Counted from the stretch's first letter, positions 19,844-52,449 are shown. The stretch is DNA of 63,917 bases from an uncultured Gammaproteobacteria bacterium (GCA_964570525.1 CAZMYO010000007.1:1-63917), one strand, 5' to 3'. Numbers and translations are program-made. Notes: generated by a model from the sequence alone, not told the origin.

Positions 19844-19863
19844 TTGTCCACAGTTTTTCCACA
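19844..19863. promoter_or_regulatory. two DnaA-box-like sites upstream of dnaA
   Basis: ttgtccaca and ttttccaca each match TTATCCACA at 8 of 9 positions. Confidence 0.55.
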
Positions 19864-19963
19864 TTTTTAGTTACTCTTTTAAACAAAAAATCTTTGTTTT
19901 TAAATGGGCCTGTGGTAGACTTACTTCACTATTGTTTTGCAATGTTTCTTCTCTTTTTACTTT

Positions 19964-21367
19964 ATGAACAACAACGAGCTTTGGCAGGCAGTCTTGGCTG
20001 AACTAGAACTTGCAATTTCCCGGGCTAATTTTGTTACCTGGTTCAAAAGCACGGGAATAGTCGCGAATCAACAGGGCCAAGTTATCTTGTGTGTTCCCAA
20101 TGCCTTTACCAGGGCCTGGCTCGAAAAAAAATATCACCAAATCATCATTAAATCTTTAGAGAGAATCACCGGTAAGCCCATTAAAAAAATCGAGTATAAA
20201 ATTGATAACATCAAAAATTTTATCGCTGAACAAGCTCTTGCTTCGACCCTCCCCTCCGGGGAGGGGGAGGGCCGCCCGGCCGAAGCCGCCTCCTACAGCC
20301 CGGCCGCCGCGGCCAAAAGCGCGCACAGCAACGGCGGATTTACTTTGAACCAAAAATATAACTTTGACAATTTCGTCGTGGGCAAGGGCAGCGAGCTCGC
20401 CTATGCTGCCGCGCAAGCGGTAGCCTCCCGCCCAGGAGAAGCCTACAATCCGCTATTCATCTACGGCGGAGTGGGACTGGGAAAAACCCATCTGCTTCAA
20501 GCGATTGGCAACGAAATCCTCAAAAAAAATCCCTCCGTTAACGTTATGTACGTGAGCGCCGAAAAATTCGGCAACGATTTTATTAGTTCCATACGCGACA
20601 AAACCGCTAAAGACTTCCAAACCCGCTACCGCCATATTGATGTGCTTCTAATTGACGATATTCAGTTCATTGCCGGCAAAGTAGAAACCCAAGAATCGTT
20701 TTTTCACACCTTTAACGAACTCCACCAACAAAATAAACAGGTTATTCTCACCTCCGATCGCCCGCCCAAAGCTATTCCGGCGCTTGAAGAGAGGCTTAAA
20801 TCACGGTTTGAGTGGGGTATGATTGCCGATGTTTCAGCTCCTGATTTTGAAACCAGGGTGGCTATCTTAGAGAAAAAATGCGCAGAAAAAAACTTTCCTT
20901 TGCCGATAAAAATTCTCCAAACCGTCGCTCTTACTGTTCAAAGCAATATCCGCGAACTTGAAGGCGCTCTCAATAAAATTATTGTCTTTCATCAGCTGAA
21001 GAATATTGAGCCTACGATTGAATCGGTGAAAAACCTTTTGATTAATTTGACCGCCTCTTCTCATCGCCAGTCGCTTACTCCCCTACAGCTTCTTGAGTCG
21101 GTGGGGAATTTCTACAGCCTTTCTCGCGATGAAATTTTAGGTAAAAATCGCGAAAAGAAAATCTCTCTGCCTCGCCAAATTATTATGTTCCTGATGCGCG
21201 AAGAGCTTAAAATGTCCTATCCCGCCATTGGCGAAGTGCTCGGCGGGCGAGATCACACCACTGCCATGCACGCCCATCAAAAAATTCTTAGAGAGACCGA
21301 GAATGACTTAAGGCTAAAACAGGAGCTTGAACTTTTAAAACAGCGTCTATACATAAACAACATTTAA
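19964..21367 (+). CDS. dnaA: chromosomal replication initiator DnaA
   Basis: Walker A GGVGLGKTHL, Walker B LLIDDIQF and the C-terminal DNA-binding helix region (GRDHTTAMHAHQKI). ATG at 19964 (MNNNELWQ) is preferred. Confidence 0.95.
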   Translation: MNNNELWQAVLAELELAISRANFVTWFKSTGIVANQQGQVILCVPNAFTRAWLEKKYHQIIIKSLERITGKPIKKIEYKIDNIKNFIAEQALASTLPSGEGEGRPAEAASYSPAAAAKSAHSNGGFTLNQKYNFDNFVVGKGSELAYAAAQAVASRPGEAYNPLFIYGGVGLGKTHLLQAIGNEILKKNPSVNVMYVSAEKFGNDFISSIRDKTAKDFQTRYRHIDVLLIDDIQFIAGKVETQESFFHTFNELHQQNKQVILTSDRPPKAIPALEERLKSRFEWGMIADVSAPDFETRVAILEKKCAEKNFPLPIKILQTVALTVQSNIRELEGALNKIIVFHQLKNIEPTIESVKNLLINLTASSHRQSLTPLQLLESVGNFYSLSRDEILGKNREKKISLPRQIIMFLMREELKMSYPAIGEVLGGRDHTTAMHAHQKILRETENDLRLKQELELLKQRLYINNI

Positions 21368-21641
21368 CTGTTCATAACTATGTGGGTGAACTGTCAACAA
21401 ATAACTGATAACCAGATAATTTTATTAGCTGAATTAATCCCAGATTTGAACGGTTGTCCACAACGATTACGAAAGACAAATTTTTTATCCACGATGTCTG
21501 CAACATTTGTCCAGAAGCAGACGCCGGCTGTGCACAACGCAAACCATCTTGGTTAGCGCAAAAACGAAGTTTTCCCCTTTGTCCACAGCCCTTATTATTA
21601 CTATTATTTTTATATATAATATAACACTCACGCCACCACAT
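21368..21641. other. candidate oriC (dnaA-dnaN intergenic region with DnaA boxes and an AT-rich unwinding stretch)
   Basis: Boxes ttgtccaca (21454), ttatccacg (21485) and ttgtccaca (21579). AT-rich run cttattattactattatttttatatataatataac at 21591-21626. Confidence 0.55.
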
Positions 21642-22766
21642 ATGAAAATTTCTTGTACTAAAGAAAACTTATCGCGAGCGCTATCCTTGGTAAGCGGCGT
21701 AACCGGAAAAAATGTCAACCTTCCCATTCTAAACAATGTGTTGCTTCGGGCAACGGAACAAAAAGTAGAGGTGGCAGCGACCAATCTTGAACTAGCCTTG
21801 GTTGTTTCTCTTCGATCAAAAATTGAAGAGCCGGGCGCGTTTACCGTGCCCGCCCGAACACTCACAGATTTTGTCAGTCTCTTGCCAAACGAAAAAATTG
21901 ACTTAGAATTGAAAGAAAACGAACTTTTGGTGCGTTGCGGAAAGTCATCTACTAAAATAAAGGGTTCCTCGGCCGAGGATTTTCCGGTTATTCCCACCAT
22001 GGAGGGTGGAGAAGGTTTTGTGGTAGAAGCCGTTGAGTTCAGAGAAGGCTTAAACAAGGTTTTGCCCGCCGCGGCCAAGAACGATATCCGCCCGGAACTG
22101 GCCGGCATATTCTTTGGTTTTAACAACCCCGATCGGCCGGGGCTCGTGATGGCGGCAACCGATAGTTACCGCTTAGCCGAGAAAAAGGTTGTTTTGAAAC
22201 AAGGGACGGGAGCGGTTAAGACGGTGGTGCCGGGCCGCACCGCTCAAGAGATGAGTCACATTTTAACGGTTACCGACGAATCGTTTCCGGAGACGAGCGC
22301 CCGCATTTTAGTGGGAGAAAACCAAATAATGGTAAATTACGGCAGCGCCCAGCTGATTTCACGTTTGGTTGAGGGGCAATATCCAGACTATACACAAATT
22401 ATCCCCAAAAGCTTTAAGACTACCGCCGAGATCAACACGGCCCAAATGGTAAAAGAAATGAAGGCGGCCGGCCTATTTACCACATCCGGCGTGAACGCGG
22501 TTTCTTTGGCTTTAAAGCCGGGAACGGGGACTATTGAGATTAACTCTACCTCAACCCAGACCGGGGAGTACGCTTCGGAAATATCCGCGGAAATTACCGG
22601 GGAAGAGAACACGGCGCTGTTAAACAATCGCTATGTGTTAGACGGCCTCAATAATATGAGTTCGGAAGAGGTTGTTTTAAAAATGATTAACGGCGACAGT
22701 CCCTGCATCTTAATGCCGAAAGACGATGATAATTATTTATATATTGTGATGCCGATACGGCAGTAA
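21642..22766 (+). CDS. dnaN: DNA polymerase III beta sliding clamp
   Basis: 374 aa, from MKISCTKENLSRALS... to ...YLYIVMPIRQ. Position directly after dnaA. ATG at 21642 was chosen because the track ORF start at 21507 would cover the oriC-like spacer. Confidence 0.92.
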   Translation: MKISCTKENLSRALSLVSGVTGKNVNLPILNNVLLRATEQKVEVAATNLELALVVSLRSKIEEPGAFTVPARTLTDFVSLLPNEKIDLELKENELLVRCGKSSTKIKGSSAEDFPVIPTMEGGEGFVVEAVEFREGLNKVLPAAAKNDIRPELAGIFFGFNNPDRPGLVMAATDSYRLAEKKVVLKQGTGAVKTVVPGRTAQEMSHILTVTDESFPETSARILVGENQIMVNYGSAQLISRLVEGQYPDYTQIIPKSFKTTAEINTAQMVKEMKAAGLFTTSGVNAVSLALKPGTGTIEINSTSTQTGEYASEISAEITGEENTALLNNRYVLDGLNNMSSEEVVLKMINGDSPCILMPKDDDNYLYIVMPIRQ

Positions 22767-48624: not shown

Positions 48625-49044
48625 CTACTCTTTTTCAGCTTCTTCAGCTTTAGCGGCGGGGGTCGTGTACGAGCTGCTCTTGACGTTGTAGAGACGTTCA
48701 CGGATCACACCGCAGGCCTCTTTGGTCAGACCCAGCTCCTTGAACGCGTTGTTCCAATTCCCGCCCACGACCTGCACACGGTTGTACAGACCAGAGATGT
48801 GAACGAGGTTGCCGGTACCGTTTTCTTTCCAGTAAATGCCGTCGGATTGCGGCTCATTATCGATCGAGGTGTCCTGGAGCGCCCAACAGCGGAATGGCCG
48901 TCCTTCGAGATCCATCTGCACCACGACCCAGTCGGCGCCGAAATTCTCGGCTTGGCAGGATGAGCACGATCGGCTAATCCCCGCGCACCCGACGAGCAGG
49001 AGTGCGTACATGGCGGTCAAACTGCTGAAACGTCGCTTTTTCAT
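48625..49044 (-). CDS. hypothetical lipoprotein (139 aa, GC-rich orphan)
   Basis: Lipobox LLLVGC after a basic N-terminus. ATG lies 4 nt after GGAGGG. Confidence 0.7.
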   Translation of the reverse strand: MKKRRFSSLTAMYALLLVGCAGISRSCSSCQAENFGADWVVVQMDLEGRPFRCWALQDTSIDNEPQSDGIYWKENGTGNLVHISGLYNRVQVVGGNWNNAFKELGLTKEACGVIRERLYNVKSSSYTTPAAKAEEAEKE

Positions 49045-49086
49045 TGGTCCCTCCGTGTTGCCCGTAAGTCTGTACGGGATAAAAAC

Positions 49087-49115
49087 ATACTAGCTTTTTG
49101 ATTATAATTTGTCAA
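49087..49115 (-). promoter_or_regulatory. sigma70-like promoter (TTGACA-N17-TAGTAT) for the 49044 lipoprotein gene
   Basis: Read on the minus strand. Confidence 0.55.
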
Positions 49116-49163
49116 TAGCTAACACTACGATAGTCGATATGCAGTTAAATTAAAATTATTTTT

Positions 49164-49185
49164 TGTATACACTACTCTAGACAAA
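49164..49185. repeat. direct repeat tgtatacactactctagacaaa (copy 1)
   Basis: Similar to 49277-49298 (tgtgtatactagtgtagacaaa). Confidence 0.6.
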
Positions 49186-49186
49186 C

Positions 49187-49195
49187 TGTGGATAA
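49187..49195. promoter_or_regulatory. perfect DnaA box (tgtggataa)
   Basis: It is the reverse complement of TTATCCACA (9 of 9) in an ORF-free AT-rich region. Confidence 0.5.
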
Positions 49196-49276
49196 CTTTG
49201 TGCATAGACATCAAAAACTGGGTATAAGTTTAGTATCACAAGGTATATTTTTCTTTTATTTTAGCCAAAATTAATT

Positions 49277-49298
49277 TGTGTATACTAGTGTAGACAAA
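49277..49298. repeat. direct repeat tgtgtatactagtgtagacaaa (copy 2)
   Basis: See 49164-49185. Confidence 0.6.
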
Positions 49299-49374
49299 TT
49301 TTTTAGCAAAATCGAGTGGTTTTTAGTAATTTTTTGGCTAACCCAAGCTATTTTTTTGCTAAAATTGCTTACTA

Positions 49375-49403
49375 TTGACAAATTCACCAATCTATGTTAT
49401 ACT
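49375..49403 (+). promoter_or_regulatory. sigma70-like promoter (TTGACA-N17-TATACT) with no ORF downstream
   Basis: Perfect -35, 17-nt spacer and a near-consensus -10. Confidence 0.6.
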
Positions 49404-49409
49404 TAATAA

Positions 49410-49722
49410 TGTAGTTCATTTTATTAGGCTATACGTCTCCTAACTACGAAGATTCTTGGAAGAAAAGGGCTTACAGTTGCTCTCATCAATGCAAAAGGGC
49501 AGCGGCTAGTCCATCTCCTTGTCTGGTAACCTCATTATTTTGCTTCCCCAAGCTTCGGCGCGGGGCAGCAACGAGGAAATACCTTCAAGTGGTTGAGACG
49601 TTTTCTGTTACAGTGTCAGTAATCACCTCGTCGACATCGACGAAGTGCATTCTCGCTGTACAGTCTTAAACGGCGAGAACCTTTTATTAATTATAATCGG
49701 GTTAACCCGCCGTTTTTTTATT
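49410..49722 (+). ncRNA. candidate structured non-coding RNA of unknown class (~300 nt)
   Basis: No ORF of 60 aa or more on either strand. A consensus promoter lies upstream. Several local hairpins are present (ccccaagc-ttcg-gcgcgggg, tcgtcg-acat-cgacga, ttctcgc..gcgagaa). The 3' end is cgggttaacccg followed by ccgttttttt. Confidence 0.45.
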
Positions 49723-49736
49723 ACACGGATTATTGG

Positions 49737-49774
49737 CCAACACATCCCTACCCCTCTTTTTAGAGGGGATTACC
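49737..49774. repeat. ACACnCCnACCCCTCTTTTTAGAGGGGA palindromic element, copy 3 of 3
   Basis: ccaacacatccctacccctctttttagaggggattacc. Confidence 0.85.
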
Positions 49775-49801
49775 GAGTGAAGCCAAACCACAGCCTGTTT
49801 C

Positions 49802-49831
49802 TTGACTAGTTTATGTTAAATCTAGTATAAT
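49802..49831 (+). promoter_or_regulatory. sigma70-like promoter (TTGACT-N18-TATAAT)
   Basis: Read directly from the sequence, upstream of the DksA/TraR-type gene. Confidence 0.6.
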
Positions 49832-49857
49832 GATTCAATACTATATAGTTACCTTCT

Positions 49858-50277
49858 ATGAATATGTCTAGAAATACCCCTAAAAAGACCGTGGCCGCAG
49901 CCTCTTCTCCAGAGTTTCTCAAAAAAGTTAAGGTAACGTTGCTTGAACAAAAGGCAACGCTCGAAGGAGGCTTGGCTAAATTTGCAAAAAAAGATAAGCG
50001 CGCCGCCACTACGGACTACGACGCCACGTTCCCCAATTATGGCGACTCCGAAGAGGATAATGCGCGCGAGGTAGCCGACTATGAAGCTAATTTATCGATT
50101 GAGCACGACATGGAAAAAACTCTGCGCGACGTGGATGCCGCCATCCGGAGAATCGCTAAGGGAACTTATGGCGTTTGCAAATATTGCGGGAAACCAATTG
50201 ACGCAAAGCGCATGTTGGCCAGGCCAACCTCCAGCGCTTGCGTGGAATGCAAGAAGACTATTCAACAAGAGGTGTAG
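49858..50277 (+). CDS. DksA/TraR family C4-type zinc-finger protein
   Basis: CKYCGKPIDAKRMLARPTSSACVECK follows a coiled-coil-like acidic region. Confidence 0.8.
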   Translation: MNMSRNTPKKTVAAASSPEFLKKVKVTLLEQKATLEGGLAKFAKKDKRAATTDYDATFPNYGDSEEDNAREVADYEANLSIEHDMEKTLRDVDAAIRRIAKGTYGVCKYCGKPIDAKRMLARPTSSACVECKKTIQQEV

Positions 50278-50322
50278 ATTAGTCCGTAAAGTCATAAAGT
50301 CTATAAAGTCGGAAAGTTTTTA
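50275..50322. repeat. AAAGTC short-repeat array
   Basis: tagattagtccgtaaagtcataaagtctataaagtcggaaagttttt. Confidence 0.75.
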
Positions 50323-50365
50323 AAATGATTGAAACATTTGTAAAGTTTCAAGAGTAAAGTCACCT

Positions 50366-50854
50366 ATGCTTAATAAGAAGCCTACACTGATATTTATGAC
50401 GTGCGGGCTTTTTTTATTGCTGGATCAATTTTTAAAATGGCAAGCTCTCCGCGATTGGCAGAACCCTGTTCTGCCGCATAAATTTTTTGGCTGGTATCCT
50501 TTTTTGAATTCCGGCATGGCTTTTAGTTTGCCCGCGCCAAACTGGCTGGTGGCGGTGCTTTCTTTGCCGATTATTGGTTTGGTGTACTATTTGTCCGGGA
50601 GAATGTATCATATCGGAGAGTTTCGGAAAGCTTGGGGGTTGGCATTCATTTTTACCGGGGCTTTGTCTAATTTGATAGACCGGATAATGTATCAAAAGAC
50701 GGTAGACTATATTCGTTTGTTTACCGGTGTCATTAATGTGGCGGATGTTCTGATCATTGCGGGATTTGTGATTTATATATTTGTTAAATCCGATTGTCAT
50801 TTCGAGCACATTCGCTGCGCTCAGTGTAAACTCCGTGAGAAATCTCTGTCTTAA
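50366..50854 (+). CDS. lspA: lipoprotein signal peptidase (signal peptidase II)
   Basis: NSGMAFSL and VDYIRL..VINVADV motifs with four TM helices. The last ~20 codons (SDCHFEHIRCAQCKLREKSLS) are read out of a palindromic repeat element. Confidence 0.85.
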   Translation: MLNKKPTLIFMTCGLFLLLDQFLKWQALRDWQNPVLPHKFFGWYPFLNSGMAFSLPAPNWLVAVLSLPIIGLVYYLSGRMYHIGEFRKAWGLAFIFTGALSNLIDRIMYQKTVDYIRLFTGVINVADVLIIAGFVIYIFVKSDCHFEHIRCAQCKLREKSLS

Positions 50855-50931: not shown

Positions 50932-52449
50932 ATGTTTATTAAGTTAAACTCGGCTGCCGTCGTGGGGCTGGAATGCGTGCCGGTGGAGGTGGAAGTAGAT
51001 ATTCATAAAGGCCAGACGAATTTTAATATCGTGGGGCTGGCGGACACTTCCATCAAAGAAGCTAAAGACCGAATTTATGCCGCTTTGAAAAATTCGGATT
51101 TTTCATATCCGTTTAATTTTCGCATTTTGGTAAACTTGGCGCCGGCCGACACCAGTAAAGAAGGGTCGGCCTACGACCTCCCGATGGCCGTTGGCATTAT
51201 CGCTATCAGCAATGATTTGAAACTCAATTTAGAGGACGCTCTTTTGGTTGGTGAGCTCGCGCTTGATGGGCTGGTACGTCACGTCGCCGGTATTTTACCG
51301 CTCGCGTTGTACGCGAAGAGACAGGGTTGGCGGCGGTTGTTTGTACCCGAGGCCGATGCGATGGAGGCGGCGCTGGTGGAAGGCGTTGAGGTATATCCGG
51401 TGAAAAATTTGAAGCAAATTATGGCGCATATAACCGGCGGAGAAGCAATTGCTCCGTTTCATCGCCCTGACAACTGGAATAGTTTTGAACCACCAAGTTA
51501 CGAAATGGATTTGGCGCTCGTCAAAGGCCAGGAGTTTGCCAAGCGGGCTTTGGAGATCGCGGCGAGCGGAGCGCACAATATCCTCATGAGCGGGCCGCCC
51601 GGATCCGGCAAAACTCTTCTCGCGCGCACCCTGCCCTCCATTTTACCGCGGCTTACCCAGGAAGAAGCTATTGAGGTTACGAAAATTTATTCGGTGGCTG
51701 GTCTTTTACATAATAGTTTTATCAAAACCAGGCCGTTTCGTTCTCCGCACCACACAGCTTCCGGAGCGGCGTTGGTCGGCGGCGGCCGAGTTCCTCGGCC
51801 GGGCGAAATTTCTTTGGCGCACCGCGGTGTTTTATTTCTGGATGAGTTTCCGGAATTTCCGCGGTTTGTGATTGAGAGTTTGCGCCAGCCGCTTGAGGAC
51901 GGAACCATTACCGTGTCTCGCGCCCAGGGAACCGTTACGTTTCCGGCGCATTTTATTTTGGTCGCGAGCCAAAACCCATGCCCCTGCGGTTATTCTTCCG
52001 ATCCGGATCACCCGTGTACCTGTAGCCCCATTCAGATCATCCGCTATCAAAAGAAAATTAGCGGGCCTCTGCTCGACCGGATTGATCTTCATGTGGAGGT
52101 GCCTCGGGTGAAGTTTGATAAACTGTCCTCGCCCGATCTAGCCGAGCCTTCTGTCCGAGTGCGGGAGCGCGTGGAAGCGGCCTGCGCCATCCAAACCCGG
52201 CGGTTTAAAGATTCGCCGGTTCACGCCAATAGCGAAATGCGCAATGCCGAGATTCGAGAATTTTGTAAGGTTGACGCGCAATCGCTGGAACTTTTGCGGG
52301 CGGCTGTAACGCAACTTCATCTTTCGGCGCGCGGGTATAATCGTATTTTAAAATTAAGCCGGACGATTGCCGACCTCGCGCAAAGTGAGCAGATTGCTCT
52401 TGAGCACATCAGCGAAGCGCTGCAATTTAGAACGAGAGTGGAGAACTAA
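50932..52449 (+). CDS. comM: YifB/ComM family Mg-chelatase-like AAA ATPase
   Basis: Walker A GPPGSGKT and Walker B VLFLDEFPEF. Lon-protease-like N-terminal domain. 505 aa. Confidence 0.9.
   Translation: MFIKLNSAAVVGLECVPVEVEVDIHKGQTNFNIVGLADTSIKEAKDRIYAALKNSDFSYPFNFRILVNLAPADTSKEGSAYDLPMAVGIIAISNDLKLNLEDALLVGELALDGLVRHVAGILPLALYAKRQGWRRLFVPEADAMEAALVEGVEVYPVKNLKQIMAHITGGEAIAPFHRPDNWNSFEPPSYEMDLALVKGQEFAKRALEIAASGAHNILMSGPPGSGKTLLARTLPSILPRLTQEEAIEVTKIYSVAGLLHNSFIKTRPFRSPHHTASGAALVGGGRVPRPGEISLAHRGVLFLDEFPEFPRFVIESLRQPLEDGTITVSRAQGTVTFPAHFILVASQNPCPCGYSSDPDHPCTCSPIQIIRYQKKISGPLLDRIDLHVEVPRVKFDKLSSPDLAEPSVRVRERVEAACAIQTRRFKDSPVHANSEMRNAEIREFCKVDAQSLELLRAAVTQLHLSARGYNRILKLSRTIADLAQSEQIALEHISEALQFRTRVEN

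Follow-up and report, generated by a model that had tools for sequence, protein, structure and literature searches.

Between a near-consensus promoter and an intrinsic terminator, on one strand of a 63,917-nt stretch of bacterial DNA, lie about 300 nt that appear to code for no protein. The question raised by this locus is whether it is the gene of a structured RNA and, if so, what such an RNA would do. The DNA (GCA_964570525.1, CAZMYO010000007.1:1-63917), hereafter the window, carries the name of an uncultured Gammaproteobacteria bacterium, and its family is Candidatus Magasanikbacteria, Patescibacteria (CPR, ultra-small bacteria). An earlier inspection, hereafter the sequence-only reading, had proposed a dedicated non-coding unit with a novel structured RNA at 49375-49722. 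This proposal is borne out: a promoter, a covarying fold and a terminator are present, and there is no conserved ORF. The RNA gene is single-copy and is found in nearly every genome of the family, and on sequence grounds the RNA belongs to a family that is not catalogued in Rfam. The unit is composed of the following elements (ends of the transcript are predicted):

49375-49403, plus strand: sigma-70 promoter TTGACA-N17-(TG)n-TATACT, 11/12 consensus matches, with a TG extension
49410-49719, plus strand: the RNA itself, primary transcript of ~310 nt
49411-49432, plus strand: P1, 5'-terminal hairpin with the motif GUUC(A/U)UUU in its loop
49433-49447, plus strand: 5' strand of P2 (P2a ACGUCUC, CU bulge, P2b AACUAC), partner of 49589-49601
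49456-49521, plus strand: P3-P4 arm; P3 is GGA(A)GA with UCUCC, P4 is GGGCUUAC.GUUGCUCU with AGGGCAGCGGCUAGUCC
49525-49583, plus strand: P5, GGUA-A-CCUC, a variable UUCG-capped tip, GAGG-AAA-UACC
49584-49588, plus strand: junction UUCAA, 3' of P5
49589-49601, plus strand: 3' strand of P2 (GUGGUU GAGACGU), which closes the three-way junction
49605-49663, plus strand: P6, hairpin of the 3' domain, CUGU with ACAG and a variable tip
49668-49719, plus strand: P7, extended intrinsic terminator, with U7 at 49713-49719

The near-perfect promoter of the sequence-only reading stands as described, and its equivalent is present at 55 of 56 homologous loci. Transcription is predicted to start at about 49409-49411. 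At the other end, the GC hairpin followed by a T-run was correctly seen, and it covaries, but the unit ends at 49719, 3 nt short of the position given before. In P7, AAACGGCG (49668-49675) pairs with CGCCGUUU (49708-49715) and AACC with GGUU, and these helices enclose a conserved AU-rich loop (CCUUAAAU...). Compensatory changes were found in 6 of the 7 P7a pairs, one position for example being GC in 20 sequences, CG in 12 and AU in 5. A simple terminator scan missed P7, because the hairpin is long and irregular. The homologous units measure 282-391 nt, with a median of about 333 nt; there is one outlier of 521 nt, whose terminator call is doubtful.

The absence of an ORF of at least 60 aa within the unit was upheld. 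The largest ORFs of the window copy are of 25-26 aa inside the unit, and one of 54 aa runs off its 3' end. The short internal ORFs are what could be said for a reading in which a small protein is encoded and the structure is incidental. Among 50 homologues, however, no conserved small ORF was detected: the longest sense ORF may be as short as 20 aa or as long as 86 aa, and any one ORF is common to at most 8 of the 50 and never beyond one genus, a sharing that is due to nucleotide identity. Moreover, the indels are not multiples of three, and the substitutions track base-pair covariation. We therefore give the small-protein reading next to no credence.

Conservation in relatives and covariation were among the checks that the sequence-only reading had called for. 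Both came out in its favour, with strong covariation, and its two other refuting conditions, a match to a known RNA family or a conserved small ORF, were not borne out either. A BLASTN search with 318 nt against 60 related genomes gave weak matches in six other genera, and all seven loci have the unit in full, from a TTGACA-N17-TAnnnT promoter through 305-381 nt to a GC stem with its U-run. Two covariance models were used, R1, which represents the core (171 positions), and R2, built from 56 sequences. R1 matches 78 of 100 genomes of the family, with one match each except in one contaminated bin; R2 matches 87 of the 100, and also 5 genomes outside the family, in a sister family of its order. 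The window's own scores are 152 bits (R1) and 130 bits (R2), and all helices are present in it. Even among the ten weakest R2 matches, promoter, terminator and upstream DnaA boxes are never missing (10/10), and nine of the ten have a palindrome upstream and a dksA-like gene downstream. A DNA pattern scan of the GTDB genomes returned 19 loci; 14 carry Magasanikbacteria or Patescibacteria names, or generic or mislabelled MAG titles, and the other five, in other phyla, are probably chance matches.

Five RNA-bearing TPA MAG records (CAYHBZ01, CAZPCV01, CAZXEV01, CAZHFX01 and CAZXIF01) are titled 'uncultured Gammaproteobacteria bacterium'. Three of them belong in the family of the window, and their public names are wrong.

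The 318-nt stretch 49405-49722 folds with -102 kcal/mol (z = -5.5), and none of 100 dinucleotide shuffles folds as well. The core of the RNA is a Y-shaped three-way junction formed by P2, the P3-P4 arm and P5. Its near-invariant features are an ACU/GGU helix with a U-G wobble, a CAAG junction, and a GGUA/UACC helix with an asymmetric A / 3-nt internal loop. The long-range pairing of acgtctc (49433-49439) with gagacgt (49595-49601), suspected in the sequence-only reading, is helix P2a; it covaries freely and continues into AACUAC/GUGGUU, where P2b hardly varies in its A-U, C-G and U-G pairs. The other long-range pairing suggested there, gttgct with agcaac, is not used: GUUGCU pairs with GGCAGC in P4, and agcaac lies in the tip of P5. 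Every one of the 16 pairs of P4 is compensatory in at least one sequence. In P5, 99% of cells are paired, and a CG/UA pair is split 28 to 27. The existence of P3 is only probable: at least five contiguous pairs can be formed in 40 of 56 sequences, with a mean longest helix of 5.4 versus 4.3 in shuffles. The stems of P1 alternate between GUAG/CUAC and GUUG/CAAC. In the 3' domain, a conserved UCUCGC box (49651-49656) lies in the 3' strand of P6.

In an alignment of 30 sequences 91.7% of cells are paired, and 17 of 32 pairs show double changes. With 56 sequences the paired fraction is 90.4% and 27 of the 32 modelled pairs are compensatory, figures that lean towards the model because this alignment was fitted to it; slid controls reached 38-53%, and none of 500 shuffles matched the real value. 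The same helices were predicted from MAFFT alignments before any covariance model was built. The UUCG-capped hairpin and tcgtcg-acat-cgacga, both stressed by the sequence-only reading, do exist in the window, as the tips of P5 and P6, but they vary across homologues; the conserved core lies elsewhere than the local hairpins to which attention had been drawn. A pseudoknot between GUUCUUU of the P1 loop and GAGAAC of the terminator was considered and discarded, there being no covariation by inspection. A likeness of CUCCUU...GGUAACC...GCGGUUGGAUC to the 3' end of 16S rRNA was judged coincidental, since these segments pair otherwise here, and CUCCUU varies to CUUCUU together with its partner.

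We then asked whether the RNA belongs to a known family. With Rfam 15 at gathering level, the whole window yielded six tRNAs only. At E<=10, the interval 49000-49900 gave only chance matches (one miRNA family and two sRNA families), and no family recurred among 20 trimmed homologues; hence the Rfam scan left the region without a family in the window and in its homologues alike. We found no published description of this RNA in the literature. A P2-(P3/P4)-P5 junction that includes the ACU/GGU and GGUA/UACC helices, between a consensus promoter and a terminator, could define the new family, and the window has all of these.

The impression that the unit is neither RNase P RNA, tmRNA, SRP RNA nor a riboswitch proved correct. 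The genome's own RNase P RNA (RF00010) is at G000:C28:2185-2626 (76 bits); in all six relatives it occupies loci other than the homologues of the new RNA, and at E<=10 no RNase P RNA match was obtained on the region. The tmRNA (RF00023) of the six relatives lies on contigs other than those with the RNA homologues, and neither ARAGORN nor Rfam detects a tmRNA at the locus. The window's assembly is estimated to be 98% complete. Searches in it for tmRNA with ARAGORN and Rfam, and for smpB with tblastn, found neither gene; because the two genes are often adjacent, an assembly gap probably accounts for both.

The models of SRP RNA (RF00169 and RF01854) matched nothing in seven genomes. The Y-shaped junction recalls the S-domain of SRP RNA (helices 5, 6 and 8), and the length is near that of long bacterial SRP RNAs; unlike these, the new RNA has no helix-8 motifs and no SRP model match, and its host genome is without Ffh and FtsY. 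The latter were sought in the genome by a Pfam SRP54 search and by tblastn with E. coli Ffh and FtsY, both negative, with the tblastn controls EF-Tu, SecY, SecA and YidC all found. SRP RNA was therefore removed as a candidate. An SRP54-type GTPase was detected in 0 of 240 genomes of the order and in 1 of 401 sampled Patescibacteria. The loss of SRP in Parcubacteria has already been published (PMC4508563); in the present sample the loss seems to extend to the phylum as a whole.

The RNase P RNAs of the family are long (442-561 nt), and several fall below the Rfam gathering cut-off (50-76 bits versus 100). Examples are the window genome's copy (L012) and those of relatives (L009, L013 and L014), and the lengths and scores suggest large lineage-specific insertions.

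Upstream of the promoter lies an AT-rich control region (window 49090-49374), which is conserved at 54 loci across more than 30 genera. In the window it holds:

49162-49185, unstranded: putative distal operator, the 24-nt palindrome TTTGTATACACTACTCTAGACAAA (family consensus TTTGTATACACTAGTGTATACAAA)
49187-49195, minus strand: perfect DnaA box TTATCCACA, abutting the distal palindrome
49258-49366, unstranded: array of TTAGCCAAA/TTTGGCTAA-type repeats, which encloses the proximal palindrome copy (49275-49298)

The palindrome was found at 51 of 54 loci, usually as a pair whose fixed distances from the -35 element are about -90/-215 or -27/-152. In the 300 nt that precede the -35 element, 46 of the 54 loci have a perfect DnaA box, and all of them have a box with at most one mismatch. 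The density of perfect DnaA boxes is 3.3 per kb upstream versus 0.008 per kb in the flanks (54 loci), a ~400-fold difference; for the TTAGCCAAA-type repeats the values are 16.8 and 1.3 per kb (55 loci), a 13-fold difference. A repeat cluster of the 49258-49366 type occurs once only in the 1.06-Mb genome.

Elsewhere in this genome the 24-nt palindrome is present at only two places, C12:9629-9652 and C65:29847, 30050 and 30132 (L125 and L126), and DnaA boxes are also near both. One of the two has a divergent HTH/excisionase-like gene on one side and, on the other, the gene of an ECF-type sigma factor with a putative anti-sigma gene. This distribution suggests a small regulon of a palindrome-binding factor.

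Downstream, the unit is followed by:

49802-49831, plus strand: separate promoter TTGACT-18-TATAAT, for the dksA/traR-type zinc-finger gene
49858-50277: dksA/traR-type zinc-finger gene
50366-50854: lspA
50932-52449: comM/yifB

The DksA/TraR zinc-finger gene and then lspA are co-oriented and downstream at 51 of 56 loci, and comM/yifB was seen wherever the fetched stretch or the contig extends far enough. Together with the weakest matches mentioned above (9/10), the linkage to the dksA-like gene holds at 60 of 66 genome loci, and also at most of the metagenomic dksA loci.

The range of the class was further explored with 80 metagenomic loci gathered by similarity to the DksA-like protein. At 30 of these an R2 match lies upstream of the dksA-like gene. 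R2 misses 35 loci for which 700 nt or more of upstream sequence is available; a consensus promoter is still seen in ~26 of these (420-620 nt upstream), and one or more perfect DnaA boxes in ~28. Many of the R2-negative promoter-to-gene segments carry the 5' GUUCUUU hairpin motif, most end in a terminator, and a CUCUACU...GGUAGAG closing helix and GGUU...UAAAACC are present in most. The class is therefore broader than R1 and R2 detect. In 12 aligned divergent sequences a short stem and loop replaces the P3-P4 arm, and in 11 of the 12 the loop holds AAAACAAAAACAAAA or a near variant. This subtype, too, has a three-way junction as its consensus fold; the invariant A-U, C-G and U-G pairs are kept, and compensatory changes occur in 11 of its 26 pairs. 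The loop motif of P1 is retained, and GGUA/UACC of the window's subtype becomes GGUU/AACC. The divergent subtype gave no Rfam match.

The near-invariant single-stranded AAAACAAAAACAAAA loop is seen at metagenome loci L172-L211, for example L185 and L175. It is an (ARN)n-like motif, a type to which Hfq or other single-strand RNA-binding proteins bind.

The gene order raises the alternative of a cis-acting leader RNA for a dksA-like-lspA-comM operon, be it a riboswitch or an attenuator that senses a protein or a tRNA. In that case the junction would act as the sensor, the expression platform would comprise P6, the UCUCGCC box and the terminator, and read-through would feed the genes. The constant position of the co-oriented dksA-like gene speaks for this alternative, and the divergent metagenomic subtype is arranged alike. 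The length and layout (a promoter, a structured domain of ~200 nt, a hairpin, an intrinsic terminator and a conserved gene) resemble those of T-box and large riboswitch leaders. In addition, UCUCGCC in P6 can pair, as in an antiterminator, with GGCGAGA in the 5' half of the terminator, the two being complementary in 86% of cells versus 30-48% in slid controls. This complementarity underlies the ttctcgc/gcgagaa hairpin of the sequence-only reading, and it holds among 45 homologues, but it shows no covariation beyond column shuffles, whereas the terminator does covary, and several genera lack it altogether. A terminator/antiterminator switch thus has the complementarity in its favour but not the covariation. 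The models of T-boxes and riboswitches fail to score on the RNA, in the window as in 20 homologues, even with the limit set at E<=10, and the downstream gene has a promoter of its own: a near-consensus promoter separates the RNA terminator from the dksA-like gene at 45 of 50 loci. The unit can, moreover, exist without a co-oriented gene, since in one complete genome (G019) it converges on a gene of the opposite orientation, and three further genomes have a gene other than dksA following the RNA. Taken together, the downstream promoter, the arrangement in G019 and the differing next genes indicate that the RNA is its own transcription unit. Given the non-covarying antiterminator, the second promoter and the G019 arrangement, we regard a leader role as unlikely.

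The RNA might instead be a highly divergent true homologue of 6S RNA in this lineage, sequestering the RNA polymerase holoenzyme. Like 6S (ssrS) and Ms1, it is a single-copy, strongly promoted, terminator-ended and non-coding RNA of housekeeping type and of a few hundred nt, and it adjoins the gene of a factor of the type that binds in the secondary channel of RNA polymerase. With RNase P RNA and tmRNA found, 6S is the sole widespread bacterial housekeeping RNA that is unaccounted for: the Rfam 6S model has no match in 10 genomes of the family, a silence that means little, because the model matched only 5 of 10 bacterial control genomes. RF00013 also failed to match the window or the 20 homologues at E<=10, and there is no similarity in sequence or to a covariance model. 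Above all, the fold differs. 6S RNA is a rod with a central bubble, whereas the new RNA has a 5' hairpin, a 3' terminator and a covarying three-way junction, and its 5' and 3' ends are not paired into a long duplex. We hold true homology with 6S to be very improbable. About as improbable is a replication-linked element, in which DnaA boxes, iteron-like repeats, AT-rich DNA and strong outward transcription would make up an origin-type or DnaA-titrating locus, with the RNA as a by-product, a primer or a regulator of initiation. The enrichment of DnaA boxes upstream, the conserved repeats in AT-rich DNA, and the distance of only ~28 kb from dnaA in the window genome are in keeping with such an element. 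Against it, the canonical origin is probably at dnaA-dnaN (window 19844-21587), where dnaA (19937-21367) is flanked by five DnaA boxes of no more than one mismatch, which precede dnaN (about 21640-22766). The cumulative GC skew has its minimum at about 21-22 kb and does not turn at 49 kb, and the upstream AT-rich region was accordingly dismissed as oriC. Furthermore, there are merely one or two boxes per locus, and a strongly covarying fold of tertiary type would be superfluous for a by-product transcript. This possibility therefore seems to us remote.

Despite a probable origin near 20-22 kb, minus-strand genes predominate from 22.8 to 49.0 kb.

We thus lean, by a little, towards an independent trans-acting RNA of the RNP type. 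Under this trans-acting reading a stable structured RNA would accumulate, its transcript protected by the end hairpins P1 and P7, and the conserved junction would serve as a protein-binding platform. Transcription may respond to DnaA and to the palindrome-binding factor, which would tie the level of the RNA to the state of replication or growth. The partner that we consider most likely is RNA polymerase and/or the adjacent DksA/TraR-type factor, so that the RNA would play a 6S/Ms1-like role with a different fold. This choice of partner was reached from the gene neighbourhood and by elimination only, no 6S RNA being detectable, and it is a tentative one, with the odds clearly on some other partner. 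In its fullest form the proposal would be a Patescibacteria-wide regulatory RNA, gated by DnaA and the palindrome factor and acting with the DksA/TraR-type protein on RNA polymerase, one subtype of which would also carry an (ARN)n-like AAAACAAAAACAAAA loop as a protein sponge. We think this combination improbable as a whole; if it is true, the RNA would be a growth- and replication-coupled global regulator of transcription that fills the role of 6S with an unrelated three-way-junction fold.

Among orphan bacterial ncRNAs of large or medium size, OLE, the raiA motif, ROOL and GOLLD offer a close parallel. Like them, the new RNA is a lineage-restricted, covarying multi-helix RNA with its own promoter and terminator and a conserved neighbourhood. 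OLE RNA, for instance, adjoins oapA. Unlike them, it has no Rfam model match and occurs in Patescibacteria, a different phylum. To our knowledge, a control region of DnaA boxes and palindromes has not been described for any of the four.

The profile of the RNA (single-copy, near-ubiquitous, covarying, with a control region and a fixed partner gene) is typical of core RNPs and not of accessory sRNAs; RNase P, tmRNA, 6S and SRP have comparable profiles. Patescibacteria account for a large part of the diversity of bacteria, yet hardly anything of their non-coding RNA repertoire has been explored. Machines that used to be considered universal, SRP among them, have been lost in this group. The locus described here provides a candidate lineage-specific core RNA, with a seed alignment for the annotation of hundreds of genomes. 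It also offers a handle on a possible coupling of replication status, through DnaA, to gene expression in minimal cells.

The order of a dksA/traR-type gene before lspA (49858-50854) mirrors ylyA-lspA of Bacillus subtilis, where ylyA, of the dksA type, and lspA presumably follow directly upon a T-box-controlled ileS. In the light of this parallel the dksA-lspA pair looks ancient, and in CPR bacteria the RNA appears to have been inserted ahead of it.
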